From the NCBI GenBank assembly GCA_013306035.1, contig JABUBF010000008.1:44457-60901 (forward strand): 16,445 nucleotides of DNA, written 5' to 3'. The position numbers and the translations under genes were made by a program. The notes under the pieces were generated by a model. The model was not told the DNA's origin, did no database searches, and saw only the letters and a list, made by a program, of their open reading frames with translations. Positions 597-16,344 of the stretch are shown in pieces. Every line of letters starts with the position of its first letter. Within the stretch, counting starts at the first letter, position 1. The DNA comes from Nitrososphaerota archaeon (lineage in GTDB: Archaea > Thermoproteota > Nitrososphaeria > Nitrososphaerales > UBA57).

Positions 597-1691
597 TTAG
601 AATTTTTCAGTTTTTTCCCATGGTACATTCTTATCGCCAAAATGTCCATATACACAATTTTTTGAATATTCAGTAAAATTGAAAAGATCAAACTTTCGAA
701 TTATGCCAAAAGGTGTAAGATCTTGTGAATCACGGATTAAAGAGGCAATCGATTGATTATCTCCATTAGAATCAACATAGAGAGAAGTGGGCTCTTTAAC
801 ACCAATTGCATAACTTAATTGGATGCTACACCAATCTGCAAGCTTGTTAAGAACGACATTCTTTGCAAGCCACCGAGCCATATACGCGGCGGATCGATCG
901 ACCTTGCTAGGGTCTTTACCTGAGAATGCACCACCGCCGTGCGGGGCATATCCTCCATATGTATCTACAATAATTTTTCGTCCAGTTATTCCAGAATCTC
1001 CTTCGGGTCCACCTATAACAAAGTTTCCTGTTGGATTAATGAAAAATTCAGTATTATTATTAATAAGTTCCCCACAAGCTTCATGAATTGCAGTTTCAGC
1101 TAGTTCTCTGGCAGAATTATTTTCATTAACAGAATGTTGAGTTGAGACTACTACCTTGTCAATGAATTTAGGAATATTATTTTCATAAACTATGCTCACT
1201 TGGCTTTTTGAATCAGGGCCCAATATATCAAGATTTTTATCTCTAATAGATCGTAAATGTTTCAGAATTTCATGTGAATAATGTATAGGTGCAGGAAGAA
1301 GAGAGGGAGTTTCTTTACATGCATAACCAAACATCAAACCTTGATCGCTTGCACCAAAGTCATCTGTGCCTAATGCGATATCAGCAGATTGATTGTGTAA
1401 ACGATTATCAATGTTCAGATGTTTCCAGTGAAAGCCATCTTGTTCATAACCAATTTCGCGAACTTTATTACGAATAATAGATTCAACTTCTTCAGAAGTA
1501 GGAAGAAAGTTTTTAGTCTCTCCAAATACTAATACATAATTAGTAGTATTAGCAATTTCAATACCACATCGAGTAGTTTCATCACCGGCAGAAAGAGCAG
1601 CGTCAACTAGTGCGTCACTAATTTGATCGGCAACTTTATCTGGATGTCCAGAAGACACTGATTCAGAAGTAAAAGTAAAGTCATTAGTCAT
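597..1691 (-). CDS. metK: S-adenosylmethionine synthetase (methionine adenosyltransferase), bacterial/eukaryal MetK type.
   Basis: ORF-track protein contains SGHPDKVADQISDA, GASDQGLMFGYA and GGGAFSGKDPSKVDRSAAYMARW, the classic MetK signatures. The track ORF starts at a TTG (1718). The in-frame ATG at 1689-1691 (MTNDFTFTSESV...) gives the usual MetK N-terminus, so I place the start there. Confidence 0.9.
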   Translation of the reverse strand: MTNDFTFTSESVSSGHPDKVADQISDALVDAALSAGDETTRCGIEIANTTNYVLVFGETKNFLPTSEEVESIIRNKVREIGYEQDGFHWKHLNIDNRLHNQSADIALGTDDFGASDQGLMFGYACKETPSLLPAPIHYSHEILKHLRSIRDKNLDILGPDSKSQVSIVYENNIPKFIDKVVVSTQHSVNENNSARELAETAIHEACGELINNNTEFFINPTGNFVIGGPEGDSGITGRKIIVDTYGGYAPHGGGAFSGKDPSKVDRSAAYMARWLAKNVVLNKLADWCSIQLSYAIGVKEPTSLYVDSNGDNQSIASLIRDSQDLTPFGIIRKFDLFNFTEYSKNCVYGHFGDKNVPWEKTEKF

Positions 1692-1780
1692 TTTGAAATT
1701 ACCGAAGTTTATCAACAATCCATGTATTGAAAAGGATTAATAATTGAATACAAGGAATTGCAGGTAGAATTCAATAAATG

Positions 1781-7922: not shown

Positions 7923-8798
7923 TTATTTTCTATTAGATAATTTCTTTTCTAATTTAATCAAATCGTCGTGATTAACGAGTTGATTGAATTTATCAAAGGT
8001 AATTAATTGATCTTCAATACCAAGAGAGGTTTGGTGTTTCTTTAGATAAGACAAAGAATCAAATACAGCCTTAGTAGATGCGTAAAGAGAGGTCAAGGGA
8101 AATAAGATAATTTTAAAACCGATTGTTTTTGCTTTTTTCATAGAGATTAAAGGAGTGCGTCCTCCTTCTAATTGGTTTAATAATAATGGAAGTTTCACTT
8201 GTTTTGCAATAATTTCTAGTTCGTCGACTTTGTTAGGAGCTTCTATAAATAAAATATCTGCGCCAGCTTTACTATATCGTTTAACTCTATCAATAGCCAT
8301 ATCTATTCCTTCGACTGCTAAACTATCAGTACGTCCTACAATCACCAAATCTGATTTTTCTTCTTTTCGACTTTGTGCAGCGGCAATTATTTTTGATTCC
8401 ATCTCATCGATGGGAATGACTAATTTTCCTTTCATATGTCCGCATTTTTTTGGCCATACTTGGTCTTCAAGAATAAGTCCTGCTGCGCCTGAACGAATAT
8501 AATCTTTGACAGTCCTCATAGTATTCAGAGAATTACCGTAGCCAGTATCTGCATCAGCAATTACAGGAATATCAATAGAATTACAAATATTAGAAACTCT
8601 TTCTTTCATTTCCGAAAAACTTACAAGACCAATGTCAGGAACGCCAAGTAAAGTTGCGGCAGTTCCATATCCCGTATGAAAAACTGCATCGAATCCTACT
8701 TGTTGTGCGATTTTTGCACTTAATGCGTCATATATTCCAGGTACAAAGATAGTTTTGTTTGTTTCGAGAAGTTTACGCAGAGACTTGGATTTATCCAT
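7923..8798 (-). CDS. Isocitrate lyase / PEP mutase superfamily enzyme (methylisocitrate-lyase or carboxy-PEP-mutase-like).
   Basis: 291 aa. DADTGYG metal-binding block and EDQVWPKKCGHMKGK, which matches the K-[KR]-C-G-H lyase-family signature with the catalytic Cys. Confidence 0.8.
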   Translation of the reverse strand: MDKSKSLRKLLETNKTIFVPGIYDALSAKIAQQVGFDAVFHTGYGTAATLLGVPDIGLVSFSEMKERVSNICNSIDIPVIADADTGYGNSLNTMRTVKDYIRSGAAGLILEDQVWPKKCGHMKGKLVIPIDEMESKIIAAAQSRKEEKSDLVIVGRTDSLAVEGIDMAIDRVKRYSKAGADILFIEAPNKVDELEIIAKQVKLPLLLNQLEGGRTPLISMKKAKTIGFKIILFPLTSLYASTKAVFDSLSYLKKHQTSLGIEDQLITFDKFNQLVNHDDLIKLEKKLSNRK

Positions 8799-12080: not shown

Positions 12081-12362
12081 ATGAGACAGTTTAAAATTAT
12101 AGCAGAACAATCTAAAAAAGTATTTGAAGAAGAATTAAATAAATTATCAGAAGATGGATGGGAGATAATTCATTATGGTAGTTCAGTAAGTATTGGTTCA
12201 ACACGTTCAAATACAGTGGCATTATTCAGTGCTGTATTAGAAAAAGAAAAAGCTGTTTCAATAAAAAAGAAAACAAAAACAGATAAGAAAAAATCATCTA
12301 CAGTAGCAAGAAAAACTACTGAAAATTCAATTTCAAGCACAAATGATTTTCAATTAAATTAG
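12081..12362 (+). CDS. Small DUF4177-like protein with a Lys-rich C-terminal tail.
   Basis: 93 aa. N-terminal MRQFKIIAEQ...ELNKLSEDGWEIIHYG resembles the DUF4177 pattern (x-YK-h-h ... LN-x-x-x-x-x-GWEL-h). The tail KKKTKTDKKKSS is low complexity. Confidence 0.55.
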   Translation: MRQFKIIAEQSKKVFEEELNKLSEDGWEIIHYGSSVSIGSTRSNTVALFSAVLEKEKAVSIKKKTKTDKKKSSTVARKTTENSISSTNDFQLN

Positions 12363-13162
12363 CTTTCAACAGGAAGATTGTCGCGAGTACTCCAATCAGC
12401 AAATGAGCGATCGTAAATTTTAACATTATTGTATTCACAAAGTTGTAATGCAACAAATGTATGAGATGCTCTTTCTCCTACTTGACAATAACAAATTATT
12501 TCTTTATCTTTTGTAATACCAAATTTTTCAAATAGATTATTTAGATTTTCAATGGTTTTAAAGATGTAACCATCATCTCCAACTGCCAATTCCCAGGGAA
12601 AGTTTTTTGAATTTGGGATTCTACCGGATTTTGGTCCAGCGGCAATAATTCCATTGAACTCATCAGGACTACGAGTATCTAGTAAGATTGAACCAGAGTC
12701 ATCAAGTTTGGATAATACATATTCATGATCAACTTTGAAATCAAGTTTAGATTGAGTTATAACAAAATCGGTATTATTAATTGCTTCAACTTTATCAGTA
12801 ACAGGATAACCTATGGACATCCATTTAGAGAAACTGAGATCAAGATATTTTACTTTAAGACCATAATATGTTAATGACCAAAATAGACGTGAAGCAGTTG
12901 TGCCACCACGATCGCCGCAAATTACAAGAACAGAATCATTTTTAACTCCAAGAATACTAAGCAACTCTTCGATTTTTTCCTTAGGAGCGATGTCAAAATA
13001 CGAAGAATCTGCATTAAAGTCTAAGATTTTATCGTATGGAACGAGCTTGGAATTAGGAATATGTGCTGAACTATATTCTCTAGGAGATCGAATATCAAGA
13101 ACAACAACATTAGAATCAAGAAGATTGTCTTTTAGCCATTCGGCGTTTAACAAAATAGACAT
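12359..13162 (-). CDS. Tandem-rhodanese sulfurtransferase (thiosulfate / 3-mercaptopyruvate sulfurtransferase type).
   Basis: 267 aa with two rhodanese repeats. The N-terminal domain appears inactive (VLDIRSPREYSSAHIPNS ... GDRGGTTASRLFW). The C-terminal domain appears catalytic, with the active-site loop CYCQVGERASH (C-x4-R-[ST]). The ATG overlaps the stop of the upstream TusA gene (TAATG). Confidence 0.85.
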   Translation of the reverse strand: MSILLNAEWLKDNLLDSNVVVLDIRSPREYSSAHIPNSKLVPYDKILDFNADSSYFDIAPKEKIEELLSILGVKNDSVLVICGDRGGTTASRLFWSLTYYGLKVKYLDLSFSKWMSIGYPVTDKVEAINNTDFVITQSKLDFKVDHEYVLSKLDDSGSILLDTRSPDEFNGIIAAGPKSGRIPNSKNFPWELAVGDDGYIFKTIENLNNLFEKFGITKDKEIICYCQVGERASHTFVALQLCEYNNVKIYDRSFADWSTRDNLPVES

Positions 13163-13389
13163 TATTTTTTCCTCAAAATAAATTTCAGATGATTATTTTC
13201 TTCTTTAATTTCAATTATTTCATGTCCGACACGATTAGCCCACGCAGGTATATCTTCTTTAGAAGCTGGATCAGTAGCAGATATTTCAAGAACCTGTCCA
13301 CTTTCCATCTTGGAAATAAATTGTTTAGTCTTAAGAACGGGAATTGGGCATACAAGTCCTTTTACATCAAGTGATTGATCTATTTTCAT
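13162..13389 (-). CDS. tusA: TusA/SirA-family sulfur-carrier protein (paralogue 1).
   Basis: 75 aa from the ATG at 13387-13389 (the track starts at a TTG at 13401). LDVKGLVCPIPVLKTKQ contains the CPxP persulfide-carrying Cys motif, and SATDPASKEDIPAWANRVGHEI is a typical TusA core. Confidence 0.8.
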   Translation of the reverse strand: MKIDQSLDVKGLVCPIPVLKTKQFISKMESGQVLEISATDPASKEDIPAWANRVGHEIIEIKEENNHLKFILRKK

Positions 13390-13393
13390 AAGA

Positions 13394-13399
13394 ATCACC
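13394..13399 (-). promoter_or_regulatory. Shine-Dalgarno-like GGTGAT upstream of TusA paralogue 1.
   Basis: The minus strand reads TTGGTGATTCTTATG, so GGTGAT sits 4 nt before the ATG. This supports the ATG at 13389 as the start and internal translation initiation within a polycistronic mRNA. Confidence 0.4.
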
Positions 13400-13409
13400 A
13401 AGAAATAAT

Positions 13410-13649
13410 TTAGTTATTATTGTTTTTTATGGAAATCTTGAAAACACCTTCGTCGGTTTCTTCGGAACTGAGAACCTCGTGTCCGTCTTTTTTAACTGCT
13501 GAAGGAATATTTATTGTAGAAGGTAAGTGATCAACAATAACTTCTAAGACTTCTCCGTCTTCTAATGTTTTTAGTTCTTTAAGAGTGAAGATAACTGGCC
13601 ATGGGCATACTTGTCCAATGAGATCGAGTTTCTTACTTTGTTGTTGCAT
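13410..13649 (-). CDS. TusA/SirA-family sulfur-carrier protein (paralogue 2, divergent).
   Basis: 79 aa. LDLIGQVCPWPVIFTLKE keeps the CPxP Cys motif. The downstream core is divergent (VDHLPSTINIP rather than the TDP-x-S-x-x-DI of paralogue 1). The ATG lies 3 nt after the stop of the SelD-like gene and is preceded by GGAGTGGA. Confidence 0.75.
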   Translation of the reverse strand: MQQQSKKLDLIGQVCPWPVIFTLKELKTLEDGEVLEVIVDHLPSTINIPSAVKKDGHEVLSSEETDEGVFKISIKNNNN

Positions 13650-13652
13650 TAA

Positions 13653-15083
13653 TCATTCCACTCCTATATTTAATTGATTTAACAAGATATCTGATGTAAT
13701 CATATCATTTACATCTTTCGAGATGTTGACTGTTCCATTTCCTTTACCTAGAACAGTGCCAATAATATGTGGGTCATAACCTGCAGATTTTAAATCAGAA
13801 CTAATATTTGCAATTATATTAGGAGAAGCAATTACTGCAACTGCGCCATTAGTACCTGCAGTAGCATTATCCATAAGGAAATTCTCAGTAGCATATTTAA
13901 CAAATTCAGGATAACGGAGGGGAAGATTATCTAGAGATATATCCACTTGTGCATTATCTGCATGTTCTTTAAAGATCATTATACCTGGTCCAGACAAGTC
14001 GCCCGTTGCAAGAACATGTTCATTAATATCAAATGAATTGCCAAATTCGGGCAAATACTTGTTAATTATTTCTGCAACCTTCAAATTTGGTTCATTCATA
14101 GTACTAATAACAGAATTTTTAGCATTTTCAACATCTTTGAGTGTATAACCAGTTTTTTCCAAGTCTTGTAAAAATGTTTCGTCTGCAACGCAGGATAAGA
14201 AGACATTAATTGGAGCTAGATCGCCAAATGGACGAGTAACCAAAATCTGCATACCAGTATTTAGAAGGTTTAATTTAGTAGGAGGTTCTTTCCTAAGAGT
14301 TCCAAACATAGTAGCGCCAATCAGTAATTTTCCACGCTGAGGTGATTCAGATGTTAGAAGTTCAATATTATATTTGTTTGCAAAAGTTTCCATATTTTTA
14401 GAAATATTATTTTTAATTTCTTCATTAGGTGCATCAACAACAGGTAAAACTTTTAGTTCTTCGAAACAACCAAGAGAAATTAAATCATTTAGAGAATTGG
14501 AGATGGCGACATTTGTTTGCTGTTCAGATGAAGGATCTGCAGTAGGATCAATAATTTGAATTGTATCATTATTTGATAAACACCAACCGTCAGATCTACC
14601 TTCTTCATAGGATATGAAATCAAACAATGCAAATTCTGCTTCTGGAAAACCGGTAATGATCGAATGGCCTTTACCAACAGTAAAATGAACGTCAGATTTA
14701 GAAATAGATGAATAAAGTGTATTCAATAATGCTTGAAACTTTTCTTGCTTCTCAGCATTTTTCTGAAAGACTTGCAATAAAGAGATTGCACGTTTTGGAT
14801 TAATCTTTTTTAAATCGTCAAGATCAATTTCAGGATTAGAAGGATTATAGATTCTACGAGTTATTACTGGACCATTTTCAGTTAATGGAAATATATCGGC
14901 ATCAACCCTCTCCCCTAAAGAGATTCCCATCTGTTTCAGACTAGGTTTTAAGTTATGCAAACTAGGATATACTACTGTATTTAAATCAACTTTCACGGCA
15001 CAGCCTGCTACCCACCTTAACGGGTCCATGCCCATTTCTCTATATTTGGAGACGTTGTCCCAGAATTCTTGTTTTGTGCTCAT
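13653..15083 (-). CDS. Selenophosphate-synthetase-like (SelD-like) PurM/AIR-synthase-superfamily ATP-dependent enzyme, unusually long at 476 aa.
   Basis: Hand alignment to E. coli SelD, recalled from memory. VAGCAVKV (res 25-32) aligns with GAGCGCKI (the Cys17/Lys20 loop). [43 protein letters not shown] aligns with [56 protein letters not shown] aligns with [17 protein letters not shown] with MTDVTGFG, and GAVAVIASP...HIIGTV with GGLLLAV...AIGELV. About 100 extra residues sit between the N-terminal loop and the core. Confidence 0.7.
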   Translation of the reverse strand: [476 protein letters not shown]

Positions 15084-15111
15084 AAGTGAAACAATTAATC
15101 AAATGTCGAAA

Positions 15112-15146
15112 AGTATATAAATATAACGGCATTATAAAATAGGGAG
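15112..15146. promoter_or_regulatory. Shared divergent control region between the SelD-like operon (minus) and the Tat beta-propeller gene (plus).
   Basis: The 70-nt spacer contains a near-palindromic TATATAAATATA (15114-15125), a second box TTATAAAAT (15132-15140) and an SD-like GGGAG (15142-15146) 7 nt before the ATG at 15154. Confidence 0.4.
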
Positions 15147-15153
15147 AATAGAA

Positions 15154-16344
15154 ATGTCAAACATAAACGTAAATCGAAGAGATTTTATCAAATATATCGG
15201 CGGAGCAGCTGTCGGTTTAGGGATTGGAGGAGCAGGTTATCTGTCTGCCAACTCTCAAGTTGGTACAGTAACAAGTGAACTTGAACAGGTAAAAGAAGAA
15301 CTAAAAGGAAGAGGACATTTAGGATATGTCTTTGGTGCGGAAGGATCAATTGCGACAATTGACCTATCTCGTGGAAAAGTCTTAGCATCATCAGGACCTA
15401 CATGGATTGCGGAAGCAGGCAGTATAGACTGGTGTAACCATTATCCGGATGCAAATGGAAATGTATGGGGGCTAGTAAGAAAATCAGGGCAAATAGGATC
15501 GACAATTGGAGTAAATCCAGCAACTAATGAACTAGTTCATGATGTTCCATTAGATGGAAGATGGAGAATAAGATTAGGAGAAACAGACACAGAAGGAAGA
15601 TACGGATATATGTTGAATGGATATATTGCAGATAAATATGATTCAGAAAAATTCAATGCTTCTAGAGACGAATTTGAAATTCCATATAAAGACATTGATC
15701 CAGGAGTAATTCACAAAGTAGATCTTCTTAGTGGAAAAGTAGTTGATAAATTAGAAGTTCCAAAGTTCTGTTGTGATGTGGCGATTGCACCTGATGGTAG
15801 ATTGTGGCTTGCAAATCAATTAGAGAGTTTGTTAACTGTAGTCGATACAAATAGCTTTACAATTGAAGAGCATTTAGCTACAGAATACTTTGACTATGGT
15901 GCAAGTATGGTAACTATTTCTCCTAACAATGATGTTGCTTTCATTGAAGTAAATTCAGCAGGAAATTGGTCAAATGCAGCAGGATTTAAGAATTTGGATC
16001 CAATTGAAATGGTATGGGACATTCAAGCAAAAGAAATGGTTAAAGAGTTTCCATTAGAATCAGGTCCACGTACAAGTGAATTCACACCGGATGGAAAATA
16101 CTGCATTGTAAGAACTAGACCAGCGTCAATAGTATATGATGTAGATAGCTTGACTGAAGTTACAAAGATAGAAATCGAGAATACAGGACATCCTGCATTT
16201 AGTCCAGATAGCAGTCTTGCATATATACCAAATCCAGGAGACAGTTCAGTTGATGTGTTCGAGGTAGGCTCGTTTAAGAAAGTAGATAGTCTGAAACTAC
16301 CTTATTCGCCATCAAAAATTATTCCAATAAATACAAACAATTAA
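15154..16344 (+). CDS. Tat-signal secreted beta-propeller repeat protein (YVTN-like).
   Basis: 396 aa. N-terminal NRRDFIKYIGGAAVGLGIGGAG is a twin-arginine signal (RR-x-F-h-K plus a hydrophobic region). A strand motif h-h-x-h-h-D-x-x-x-x-K/E-h-h recurs: SIATIDLSRGKV, IHKVDLLSGKVV, LLTVVDTNSFTI, MVWDIQAKEMV, SIVYDVDSLTEV, SVDVFEVGSFKKV. PDG turns also recur (IAPDGRLW, FTPDGKY, FSPDSS). Confidence 0.7.
   Translation: MSNINVNRRDFIKYIGGAAVGLGIGGAGYLSANSQVGTVTSELEQVKEELKGRGHLGYVFGAEGSIATIDLSRGKVLASSGPTWIAEAGSIDWCNHYPDANGNVWGLVRKSGQIGSTIGVNPATNELVHDVPLDGRWRIRLGETDTEGRYGYMLNGYIADKYDSEKFNASRDEFEIPYKDIDPGVIHKVDLLSGKVVDKLEVPKFCCDVAIAPDGRLWLANQLESLLTVVDTNSFTIEEHLATEYFDYGASMVTISPNNDVAFIEVNSAGNWSNAAGFKNLDPIEMVWDIQAKEMVKEFPLESGPRTSEFTPDGKYCIVRTRPASIVYDVDSLTEVTKIEIENTGHPAFSPDSSLAYIPNPGDSSVDVFEVGSFKKVDSLKLPYSPSKIIPINTNN

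Follow-up and report, generated by a model that had tools for sequence, protein, structure and literature searches.

A SelD-like, TusA, TusA and tandem-rhodanese operon in a marine heterotrophic archaeon: a lineage-specific version of a previously described gene association, with a possible role in sulfur activation

Results

Organization of the four-gene operon

A SelD-like protein, two TusA paralogues and a tandem rhodanese are encoded side by side in a 16,445-nt stretch of contig JABUBF010000008.1 from a Nitrososphaerota archaeon (the window, in whose numbering all coordinates are given, with features on the minus strand unless stated otherwise). We describe the four genes, their most likely organization as one operon and the possible role of the operon in sulfur activation. 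The genes and the intergenic region next to them are as follows:

13653..15083, minus strand: gene for the SelD-like protein (476 aa; NCBIfam NF038049)
13410..13649, minus strand: gene for TusA paralogue 1, TusA1 (79 aa; PF01206)
13162..13389, minus strand: gene for TusA paralogue 2, TusA2 (75 aa from the ATG, 79 aa from an upstream TTG at 13401; PF01206)
12359..13162, minus strand: gene for the tandem rhodanese (267 aa; PF00581, two domains)
15084..15153: divergent intergenic region of 70 nt, A/T-rich with TATA-like boxes, as read from the sequence

The four open reading frames (ORFs) had been proposed in an earlier reading of the bare sequence (the sequence-only reading), and their positions proved exact. 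Likewise, the junctions of 3, 20 and -1 nt and the anti-16S-like motifs that it had listed were recovered when the sequence was read again. The SelD-like gene is joined to TusA1 by TGA-tta-ATG (3 nt), TusA1 to TusA2 by a TAA, 20 nt and an ATG, and TusA2 to the rhodanese gene by TAATG, with an overlap of 1 nt. Shine-Dalgarno-like motifs (GGAGTGGA, GGTGAT and GAGG) are located 5-10 nt 5' of the three internal starts. The 70-nt divergent region is the sole gap of the block with room for a promoter, and contains TTTATATA at 15114-15121, the end of which lies 30 nt ahead of the SelD-like ATG; judged by archaeal TATA-box spacing, this region is a putative promoter. A sigma-70 promoter and terminator scan of the window, which is inapplicable to an archaeon, performed no better than on shuffled sequences. 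The tight single-operon architecture suggested earlier fits the junctions, the Shine-Dalgarno-like motifs and the clade-wide conservation described below, and the four genes most likely constitute one polycistronic operon, within which TusA1 appears to be translationally coupled to the SelD-like gene.

Pfam searches confirmed both TusA proteins, with their CPxP motifs, and the tandem rhodanese, matching PF01206 and PF00581, respectively. Against a PF01206 cut-off of 28.6 bits, TusA1 scored 74.5 bits and TusA2 86.6 bits, and both possess the CPxP cysteine, which is Cys15 in GQVCPWPVI for TusA1 and lies in the canonical GLVCPIPVLK for TusA2. The equivalog models for TusA, YedF and YeeD all scored under their cut-offs with both proteins; the best NCBIfam model was YedF for TusA1 (59 bits, cut-off 79) and TusA for TusA2 (65.6 bits, cut-off 78). 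Three types of TusA are separable by motif among these loci, namely CPWPVI (coupled to the SelD-like gene), CPIPVLK (canonical) and CPYP[VQ]I (beside YeeE). In every tabulated Thaumarchaeota-type locus and in L012, the gene that immediately follows the SelD-like gene encodes a TusA of the CPWP type, as in TusA1, and the CPIPVLK type of TusA2 is conserved across the marine clade.

The rhodanese matches PF00581 in two stretches (110.7 bits). Cys226 of the second domain, in CQVGERA, is kept in 25 of 27 orthologues. Cys82 of the first domain is replaced by Tyr in most relatives, and this domain is therefore probably inactive. The 3-mercaptopyruvate sulfurtransferase (SseA) model gave 98.8 bits against a cut-off of 250, and its active-site loop CQVGERA matches neither of the loop motifs CRKGVTA and CG[ST]GVTA. 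A carrier cysteine is found in each TusA protein and in the second rhodanese domain.

Family and fold of the SelD-like protein

The 476-aa protein was matched by NCBIfam NF038049 (SelD_rel_HyperS, 'SelD-related putative sulfur metabolism protein') with 555.1 bits against a cut-off of 250. This match is full-length, residues 6-472 covering model positions 2-464 of 465. The model of true SelD, PRK14105, aligned to residues 174-459 only and reached 38.8 bits, short of its cut-off of 291, and the NCBIfam HypE model gave 22 bits. Furthermore, the protein exceeds the two-domain A-B architecture of SelD (~330-390 residues). It is a full member of a known SelD-like family and not SelD proper. A profile search, which the sequence-only reading had proposed as a check, thus led to NF038049; Pfam returned zero matches at E<0.01, AIRS and AIRS_C included.

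A profile of 109 family members was used to search the PDB sequences, with human SEPHS1 as the top match (E 3.6e-7) and HypE as the second (1.3e-4). An AlphaFold (AF2) model built on the family alignment was confident, with a predicted local distance difference test score (pLDDT) of 92.6 and a predicted template modelling score (pTM) of 0.91. With this model, the top 14 Foldseek matches were selenophosphate synthetases (E down to 2.4e-16), followed by HypE, ThiL and PurM, the alignments spanning ~314 of the 476 residues. NCBIfam, the PDB profile search and the fold search agree in placing the large protein among the relatives of SelD, as had been suggested.

The family was described by Li et al. 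(2014; BMC Genomics 15:908, PMC4210487). Their computer analysis located SelD-like proteins in Sulfolobales and Thermoproteales, which retain the catalytic Cys of SelD together with its Asp/Asn ligands, and placed them on a separate branch beside SelD in the PurM/PurL/ThiL/HypE superfamily, the N-terminal Cys-x-x-Lys loop being absent from the other families. The same paper reports SirA-like (TusA), Prx-like (COG2210), rhodanese PspE and DSR genes as neighbours, a fusion of the SelD-like protein to an acylphosphatase domain in Thermoproteales, and all sequenced Crenarchaeota as lacking known selenium traits; a thiophosphate compound made from sulfide and ATP was proposed as the product. The sequence-only reading had recognised no described system of this kind, and on this point it does not hold, as the family, its association with genes for SirA/TusA and rhodanese in archaea lacking selenium traits, and the thiophosphate idea all appeared in print in 2014 (PMC4210487). 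Its suggestion of a sulfur counterpart to SelD likewise restates a published hypothesis, because Li et al. had already proposed thiophosphate. Reviews of 2022 and May 2026 still treat the function of SelD-like proteins as speculation.

The N-terminal loop and the nested domain

Three elements of the SelD-like gene were mapped by conservation, alignment to E. coli SelD and structure prediction:

14985..15005, minus strand: predicted mobile catalytic loop G-C28-A-V-K31-V-D, residues 27-33 (conservation and alignment to E. coli SelD)
14586..14885, minus strand: extra A' domain, residues ~67-166, predicted to be a second N-domain of the PurM-superfamily type, inserted into the beta1-beta2 hairpin of the canonical N-domain
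14661-14675, minus strand: invariant GKGHS motif of the A' domain, residues 137-141

Across the 109 sequences of the family alignment, 39 columns are invariant and include all catalytic positions. G27, C28 and K31 of the loop are invariant, position 28 always being Cys and never selenocysteine (Sec), as are D61, N196, D200 and D362, with D173 kept in at least 90%. The full set of invariant or near-invariant positions contains R59/D61, G137-K138-G139-H140, N171-N172-(D173)-T174, D179, N196/D200, D362-x-x-G365-x-G367 and T408-x-x-T411-N412-G413.

The E. coli SelD sequence used for comparison was taken from NC_000913. When the whole family profile was aligned to it, only residues 192-390 were covered, pairing N196 with N87, D200 with D91 and D362 with D227 and leaving out the Cys/Lys loop. 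Removal of the insert in silico gave a contiguous hhalign alignment of residues 21-390 with SelD 10-258, improving the E-value from 3.2e-5 to 3.5e-6 and the probability from 72.6 to 87.6. In this alignment AGC28AVK31 is paired with AGC17GCK20, and R59-x-D61 with R49-x-D51. A hidden Markov model of the N-terminus only found its best spot in E. coli SelD at GAGC17GCK20, albeit weakly (E ~0.05-0.13), and the pLDDT of the AF2 model falls to 62 in the loop block. Residues 27-33 are therefore predicted to be the equivalent of the Cys17/Lys20 loop of E. coli SelD. A Cys/Lys loop of the SelD type had been noticed in the sequence-only reading, and it is upheld by its alignment after insert removal and by the conservation of C-x-x-K and of the Asp/Asn ligands.

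The SelD-like protein is ~130 residues longer than SelD, and ~100 residues of extra length fall between the equivalents of D51 and D68 of E. coli SelD. By structure prediction, residues 60-178 fold alone (pLDDT 91.6). The best 24 Foldseek matches of this 119-residue segment in the PDB were all N-domains of HypE, ThiL, SelD and PurM, with HypE at the top (E 7.7e-5) and alignments over 102-124 columns. Using hhalign, GKGHSI of the insert pairs with GGHSI of E. coli SelD, weakly (E 0.035), and the insert aligns in register with the core of its own protein (E 0.099). At the canonical position the GGHS motif has been lost, and the insert contains it as GKGHS. We conclude that the predicted architecture consists of the Cys/Lys loop, a nested extra A-type domain, a canonical A domain and a B domain.

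The large PurL (FGAM synthetase) pseudo-dimer likewise carries duplicated PurM-type domains in one chain; however, PurL duplicates both domains in tandem (A1-B1-A2-B2), whereas in the predicted structure of the SelD-like protein only the A-type domain is duplicated, and it is nested. In the published structure of Aquifex SelD the nucleotide site is reportedly formed at the homodimer interface, and therefore the extra domain may build this SelD-type interface intramolecularly, within one chain. Should this be so, the nested second N-domain could guide structural work. It is new here, in that the available portion of Li et al. (2014) does not describe it (PMC4210487).

Distribution and gene neighbourhood

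A family profile search of 1.84 billion representative proteins returned only 96 at E<=1e-30 and 209 at E<=1e-3, and relatives were found in 111 of 185,579 species genomes. Most belong to Thermoproteota (Sulfolobales, Desulfurococcales, Acidilobales, Pyrodictiaceae, Thermofilaceae, Ignisphaera and non-ammonia-oxidising Nitrososphaeria). The other hosts are Hydrothermarchaeales, metagenome-assembled genomes (MAGs) labelled Halobacteria or Methanobacteriota, and a few bacterial MAGs (Bipolaricaulota, Fraserbacteria). The range is wider than reported in 2014, a few bacterial MAGs included: Li et al. gave the family as absent from bacteria and Desulfurococcales (PMC4210487), and the genome scan finds it in both. 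The SelD-like genes of L056, L060, L072, L076 and L077 (and L012) are in MAGs labelled Bipolaricaulota/Acetothermia, Fraserbacteria or Acidobacteriota, for which binning errors are possible.

The SelD-like protein of the window, whose G+C content is ~31%, is 100% identical to the NCBI entry of a Nitrososphaerales MAG. Proteins with 98-80% identity come from the marine thaumarchaeal MAGs Langseth_MAG_00051, ASW8_bin1, ALOHA_A2.5_79, UBA223, ASW2_bin45 and SAT139, and cultured ammonia oxidisers are not among the matches listed. ASW8 and SAT139 are heterotrophic marine Thaumarchaeota/Nitrososphaerota, a lineage with genomes of ~1 Mb and no ammonia oxidation, reported to be without sulfite reductase and other sulfur-metabolism genes (PMC7300363, PMC13374868). 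The papers on this lineage are silent on the operon genes (PMC7300363, PMC13374868), and the entries in the accessible part of its supplement include TusA and rhodanese clusters and no other operon gene.

The gene neighbourhood was analysed by clustering every ORF located up to 5 kb from the SelD-like gene in 78 loci, including the window, and annotating the recurrent clusters:

TusA near the SelD-like gene: 64 of 78 loci, in many archaeal orders
Acylphosphatase directly downstream: 36 of 78 loci
YeeE/YedE-type Sulf_transp membrane protein: 29 of 78 loci
Tandem rhodanese: 28 of 78 loci
Cysteine-synthase-like pyridoxal-phosphate (PLP) enzyme: 11 of 78 loci
ThiF/MoeB: 6 of 78 loci

An SQR-like flavoprotein, DsrE, a MetE-like protein, OsmC and a Cys-based phosphatase are sporadic neighbours. 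In the marine clade, comprising nine loci (the window, L001-L007 and L009), the order is always SelD-like, TusA, TusA, tandem rhodanese, and the SelD-like proteins of the eight related genomes are 63-98% identical to that of the window. The junctions are of +3/-4, ~16-28 and -1..+2 nt, with GGTGA before the TusA2 start in most. This four-gene arrangement is far beyond chance. Its recurrence in eight related genomes also removes the concern that the genes might not be syntenic in relatives, which the sequence-only reading had named as grounds for abandoning its proposal. In groundwater Thaumarchaeota, at ~58-61% identity, the genes are rearranged (rhodanese < TusA < / SelD-like > TusA), and the usual order in hyperthermophiles is YeeE > TusA > SelD-like > acylphosphatase (> TusA).

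No acylphosphatase gene was detected in the window or in the marine clade, and ThiF is likewise missing beside the operon of this lineage. An acylphosphatase, fused or adjacent, is not required by NF038049 and does not accompany the window operon; in Vulcanisaeta it is fused to the SelD-like protein. In Pyrodictiaceae and one Desulfurococcales genome, acylphosphatase is followed by a Cys-based phosphatase of the dual-specificity type, and neither is found in the marine clade.

The cysteine-synthase-like PLP enzyme, which has an N-terminal extension of ~90 aa, is encoded beside the SelD-like gene in Acidilobales, Caldisphaera and Bipolaricaulota (L045, L052, L056, L058, L059, L072, L073, L075, L077, L079 and L080), and might be the consumer of an activated sulfur donor. 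A further tier of long relatives (P0149-P0208; 430-517 aa, 150-260 bits) has a CGCG[VI]K or CGCAGK loop. Their loci (L082-L084) have contexts without TusA, for example with a phosphoglycerate-mutase-like neighbour, and give no functional clue; these proteins may constitute an undescribed sister family.

On the other side of the putative promoter region lies a divergent gene:

15154..16344, plus strand: YVTN-type beta-propeller with a twin-arginine translocation (Tat) signal (396 aa; TAT_signal_seq and weak beta-propeller models)

The closest solved relatives of this propeller are generic (S-layer YVTN propeller 1L0Q and hydrazine synthase beta). In L002-L007 a propeller of the window type is followed by a second, membrane-anchored beta-propeller and then by a YeeE-type gene, after which L002 and L004-L006 have a third TusA gene of the CPYP type. 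The propeller block of these relatives matched only generic models (1L0Q, hydrazine synthase beta and lactonase-type NosZ). The YeeE/TusA pair of the relatives is ~3.5 kb upstream, in a stretch that opens with the second propeller just past the position of the window's right end. Their YeeE-type protein scored 166 bits with the YedE/FdhT model and 136 bits with TsuA, both under cut-off. The divergent propeller is a conserved neighbour in the marine clade, where the entire block is kept, and it may or may not be part of the system.

Discussion

A persulfide relay into a SelD-like enzyme

Our preferred, though tentative, interpretation of the operon, by analogy with SelD, is a persulfide relay coupled to an ATP-dependent, sulfur-activating SelD-like enzyme. 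Sulfane sulfur, probably from thiosulfate entering via the YeeE/TusA pair of the relatives, would be loaded as a persulfide onto rhodanese Cys226 and handed through the two TusA paralogues, the canonical CPIP one and the CPWP one coupled to the SelD-like gene, before arriving at Cys28 in the flexible loop near the N-terminus of the SelD-like enzyme. There, if the chemistry resembles that of SelD, the terminal sulfur would be phosphorylated with ATP. The activated sulfur donor thus supplied to biosynthesis would be either thiophosphate (made along with AMP and inorganic phosphate, Pi) or a phosphorylated persulfide bound to the enzyme or to a carrier. The gene identities, the operon and the relay into an ATP-dependent enzyme of the SelD type, as put forward in the sequence-only reading, fit the evidence, and the claim of an undescribed system is the part that does not. 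Sulfur is favoured over selenium because the recurrent neighbours are sulfur genes, because the family is very distant from true SelD and because its hosts are reportedly without selenium traits (PMC4210487).

Several points weigh against this interpretation. The acylphosphatase link (36 loci; e.g. L023, L029, L052 and L069) is unexplained by a simple thiophosphate model. The active site of the SelD-like protein may differ from that of SelD, since GGHS is displaced into the extra domain, and the equivalence of D173 with D68 is by inspection only. To our knowledge, thiophosphate is not an established natural metabolite, and we know of no consumer for it. The nearest curated models of TusA1 and of the relatives' YeeE-type protein, YedF and YedE, are selenium-associated, with scores under the cut-offs. 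Moreover, our literature search found no biochemical or genetic study of any member of the SelD-like family.

Acylphosphatase and the comparison with HypE bring in an unlikely alternative, in which the PurM-superfamily enzyme would act on a protein-bound or acyl group instead of phosphorylating a chalcogen, with TusA as substrate or carrier. This could proceed by a HypE-like activation or dehydration on a carrier Cys, or through an acyl phosphate attacked by sulfur to give a thiocarboxylate. HypE shares the PurM-superfamily fold and performs ATP chemistry on a Cys-bound group of a flexible terminal segment, and it partners an acylphosphatase-type domain (HypF), a pairing echoed by the downstream acylphosphatase genes of many SelD-like loci in other lineages and by the fusions in Vulcanisaeta and Thermoproteales. 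HypE is also the second-best match in fold and sequence and the best match of the extra domain, ThiF/MoeB adenylyltransferases are near the gene in six loci, and the GGHS motif has been relocated. However, the reactive Cys is C-terminal in HypE and N-terminal in the SelD-like protein, SelD models beat HypE models at every level, and the locus is without hydrogenase maturation genes and has neither acylphosphatase nor ThiF beside the operon. The Cys-x-x-Lys loop of SelD, moreover, is invariant here and, as reported by Li et al., absent from the other superfamily families (PMC4210487).

SelD (selenophosphate synthetase, SPS) is the nearest characterised enzyme by both profile and fold. It has in common with the SelD-like protein a flexible Cys/Sec-x-x-Lys loop and equivalents of D51, D68, N87, D91 and D227, D68 being matched by inspection, and carrier proteins bearing a persulfide or perselenide are the presumed suppliers of SelD, too. 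A rhodanese can supply selenium to SelD in vitro. The operon might accordingly be a selenium module, in which the SelD-like enzyme makes selenophosphate for an orphan selenium trait and YedE-like, YedF/TusA-like and rhodanese proteins import and deliver selenium; we consider this slightly more improbable than action on an acyl group. All catalytic residues of SelD are kept, TusA1 scores best on YedF and the YeeE-type protein on YedE/FdhT (by 166 bits to 136 for TsuA), and the joint presence of YedE and YedF with SelD has been published as a selenium signature of bacteria. Against this, the YedF and YedE scores are all under curated cut-offs, 38.8 bits against 291 on the SelD model marks a very distant relationship, the active-site residue is never Sec, and the neighbours elsewhere are SQR-like, DsrE, CysK/M-like, MetE-like and ThiF proteins. 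The sequence-only reading had seen no consumer of the product in the window, and domain annotation and a tRNA scan of the 16.4 kb agree: genes for SelA, PSTK/SepSecS, SelB, SelU, YqeB/YqeC and SenA/SenB are absent from the window, and the tRNA scan (including tRNA-Sec) and Rfam scan of the window returned nothing. Unlike SelD, the SelD-like enzyme likely has sulfur as its substrate. The Sulfolobales and Thermoproteales hosts are, according to Li et al., without known selenium traits (PMC4210487).

That sulfur-housekeeping genes simply happen to be neighbours here, without working together, the SelD-like protein being a decayed, non-catalytic relic, is disfavoured and very improbable: the protein has no Pfam AIRS/AIRS_C match, but order and junctions are kept from 98% to 63% identity (rearranged but still adjacent at ~58-61%), TusA adjacency extends across phyla in 64 of 78 loci, the catalytic positions are all among the 39 invariant columns, the structure prediction is confident and the operon is retained in genomes of ~1 Mb. 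The probability that these four readings leave over belongs to other mechanisms.

Relation to known systems

The operon has much in common with the SelD-like family as described by Li et al. (2014), namely a full-length family match, the Cys-x-x-Lys loop and ligands, SirA/TusA and rhodanese neighbours, hosts without selenium traits and the thiophosphate proposal. It differs in that the host is a marine, low-GC, small-genome heterotroph and not a hyperthermophile, and in that the operon lacks acylphosphatase and a Prx/DsrE-like neighbour and has a fixed order with a CPWP-type and a CPIP-type TusA.

Rhodanese/TusA/DsrE cascades that feed sHdr or Dsr employ the same carriers, with stepwise persulfide transfer to a cytoplasmic acceptor (PMC11094781; PMC4175335). 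In the operon, by contrast, the acceptor would be an ATP-dependent PurM-superfamily enzyme and no oxidoreductase, hdr, dsr and lbpA are absent from the vicinity, and sulfur oxidation is not known from the host. YeeE/YeeD (TsuA/TsuB) is an established thiosulfate uptake system (PMC11073785). As in YeeE/YeeD and YedE/YedF, the relatives carry a Sulf_transp membrane protein followed by a CPYP-type TusA; this pair is outside the window, and in hyperthermophiles it sits directly before the SelD-like gene. Unlike TsuA and YedE, the YeeE-type protein of the relatives is under both cut-offs, so that its substrate class is putative.

A SelB-like factor, aSelBL, occurs in Sulfolobales, some Thermoproteales and Thaumarchaeota. 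A link to the SelD-like family was considered and set aside, because aSelBL is absent from Pyrobaculum, in which Li et al. reported SelD-like genes, and because they found neither SepRS nor SepCysS in SelD-like hosts (PMC4210487).

Implications for the host lineage

The operon extends an already published hypothesis to a further host; it is a form, specific to this lineage, of an association of genes described before, and no new kind of system. Besides the nested N-domain, the novel points are that the host is a marine heterotroph, that the order of the four genes is fixed and includes two types of TusA, that a YeeE/TusA pair is linked to them, and that the family has a broader range. The locus is a compact, conserved version of the association, with enzyme, two carriers and sulfurtransferase on one predicted mRNA. 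Its retention in a genome of ~1 Mb reported to be without sulfite reductase suggests a needed route to reduced sulfur. Furthermore, the published metabolic reconstructions of the hosts, which are mesophilic, globally distributed deep-ocean archaea, list no sulfur metabolism, and the locus may therefore mark a way of acquiring sulfur that has been overlooked.

In a broader version, which we regard as doubtful, the operon and the YeeE/TusA pair of the relatives would be the main entry of inorganic reduced sulfur, with thiophosphate as a real ATP-activated sulfur currency. Thiophosphate would then supply the synthesis of cysteine, Fe-S clusters, thionucleosides or thiocarboxylates in place of persulfide derived from cysteine desulfurase, as selenophosphate does for selenium. 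If the family does make thiophosphate, this would be a new activated-sulfur metabolite in central metabolism, and would show how the machineries of selenium and sulfur activation have diverged.

Other genes of the window

The remainder of the window is of a housekeeping nature, coding for S-adenosylmethionine (SAM) synthetase, LSM, RadA/B-like, NFACT, amidohydrolase, glycosyltransferase, phosphoenolpyruvate (PEP)-mutase-family, rhomboid, PAS and UbiA proteins. Three features deserve separate mention:

597-1718, minus strand: SAM synthetase with three Pfam domains, S-AdoMet_synt N, M and C
7923-8798, minus strand: PEP mutase/isocitrate lyase family protein (PF13714, 163 bits), between glycosyltransferase genes
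12081..12362, plus strand: ORF of 93 aa, lysine/serine-rich, with a weak DUF4177 match, convergent with the rhodanese gene

The N/M/C set of the SAM synthetase is one that we take to be typical of the bacterial and eukaryotic MetK and not of the archaeal type, and would be unusual for an archaeon if confirmed. The protein encoded at 7923-8798 might be involved in phosphonate or methylisocitrate chemistry. The 93-aa ORF overlaps the stop of the rhodanese gene by 4 nt and occupies the same position in eight related loci.

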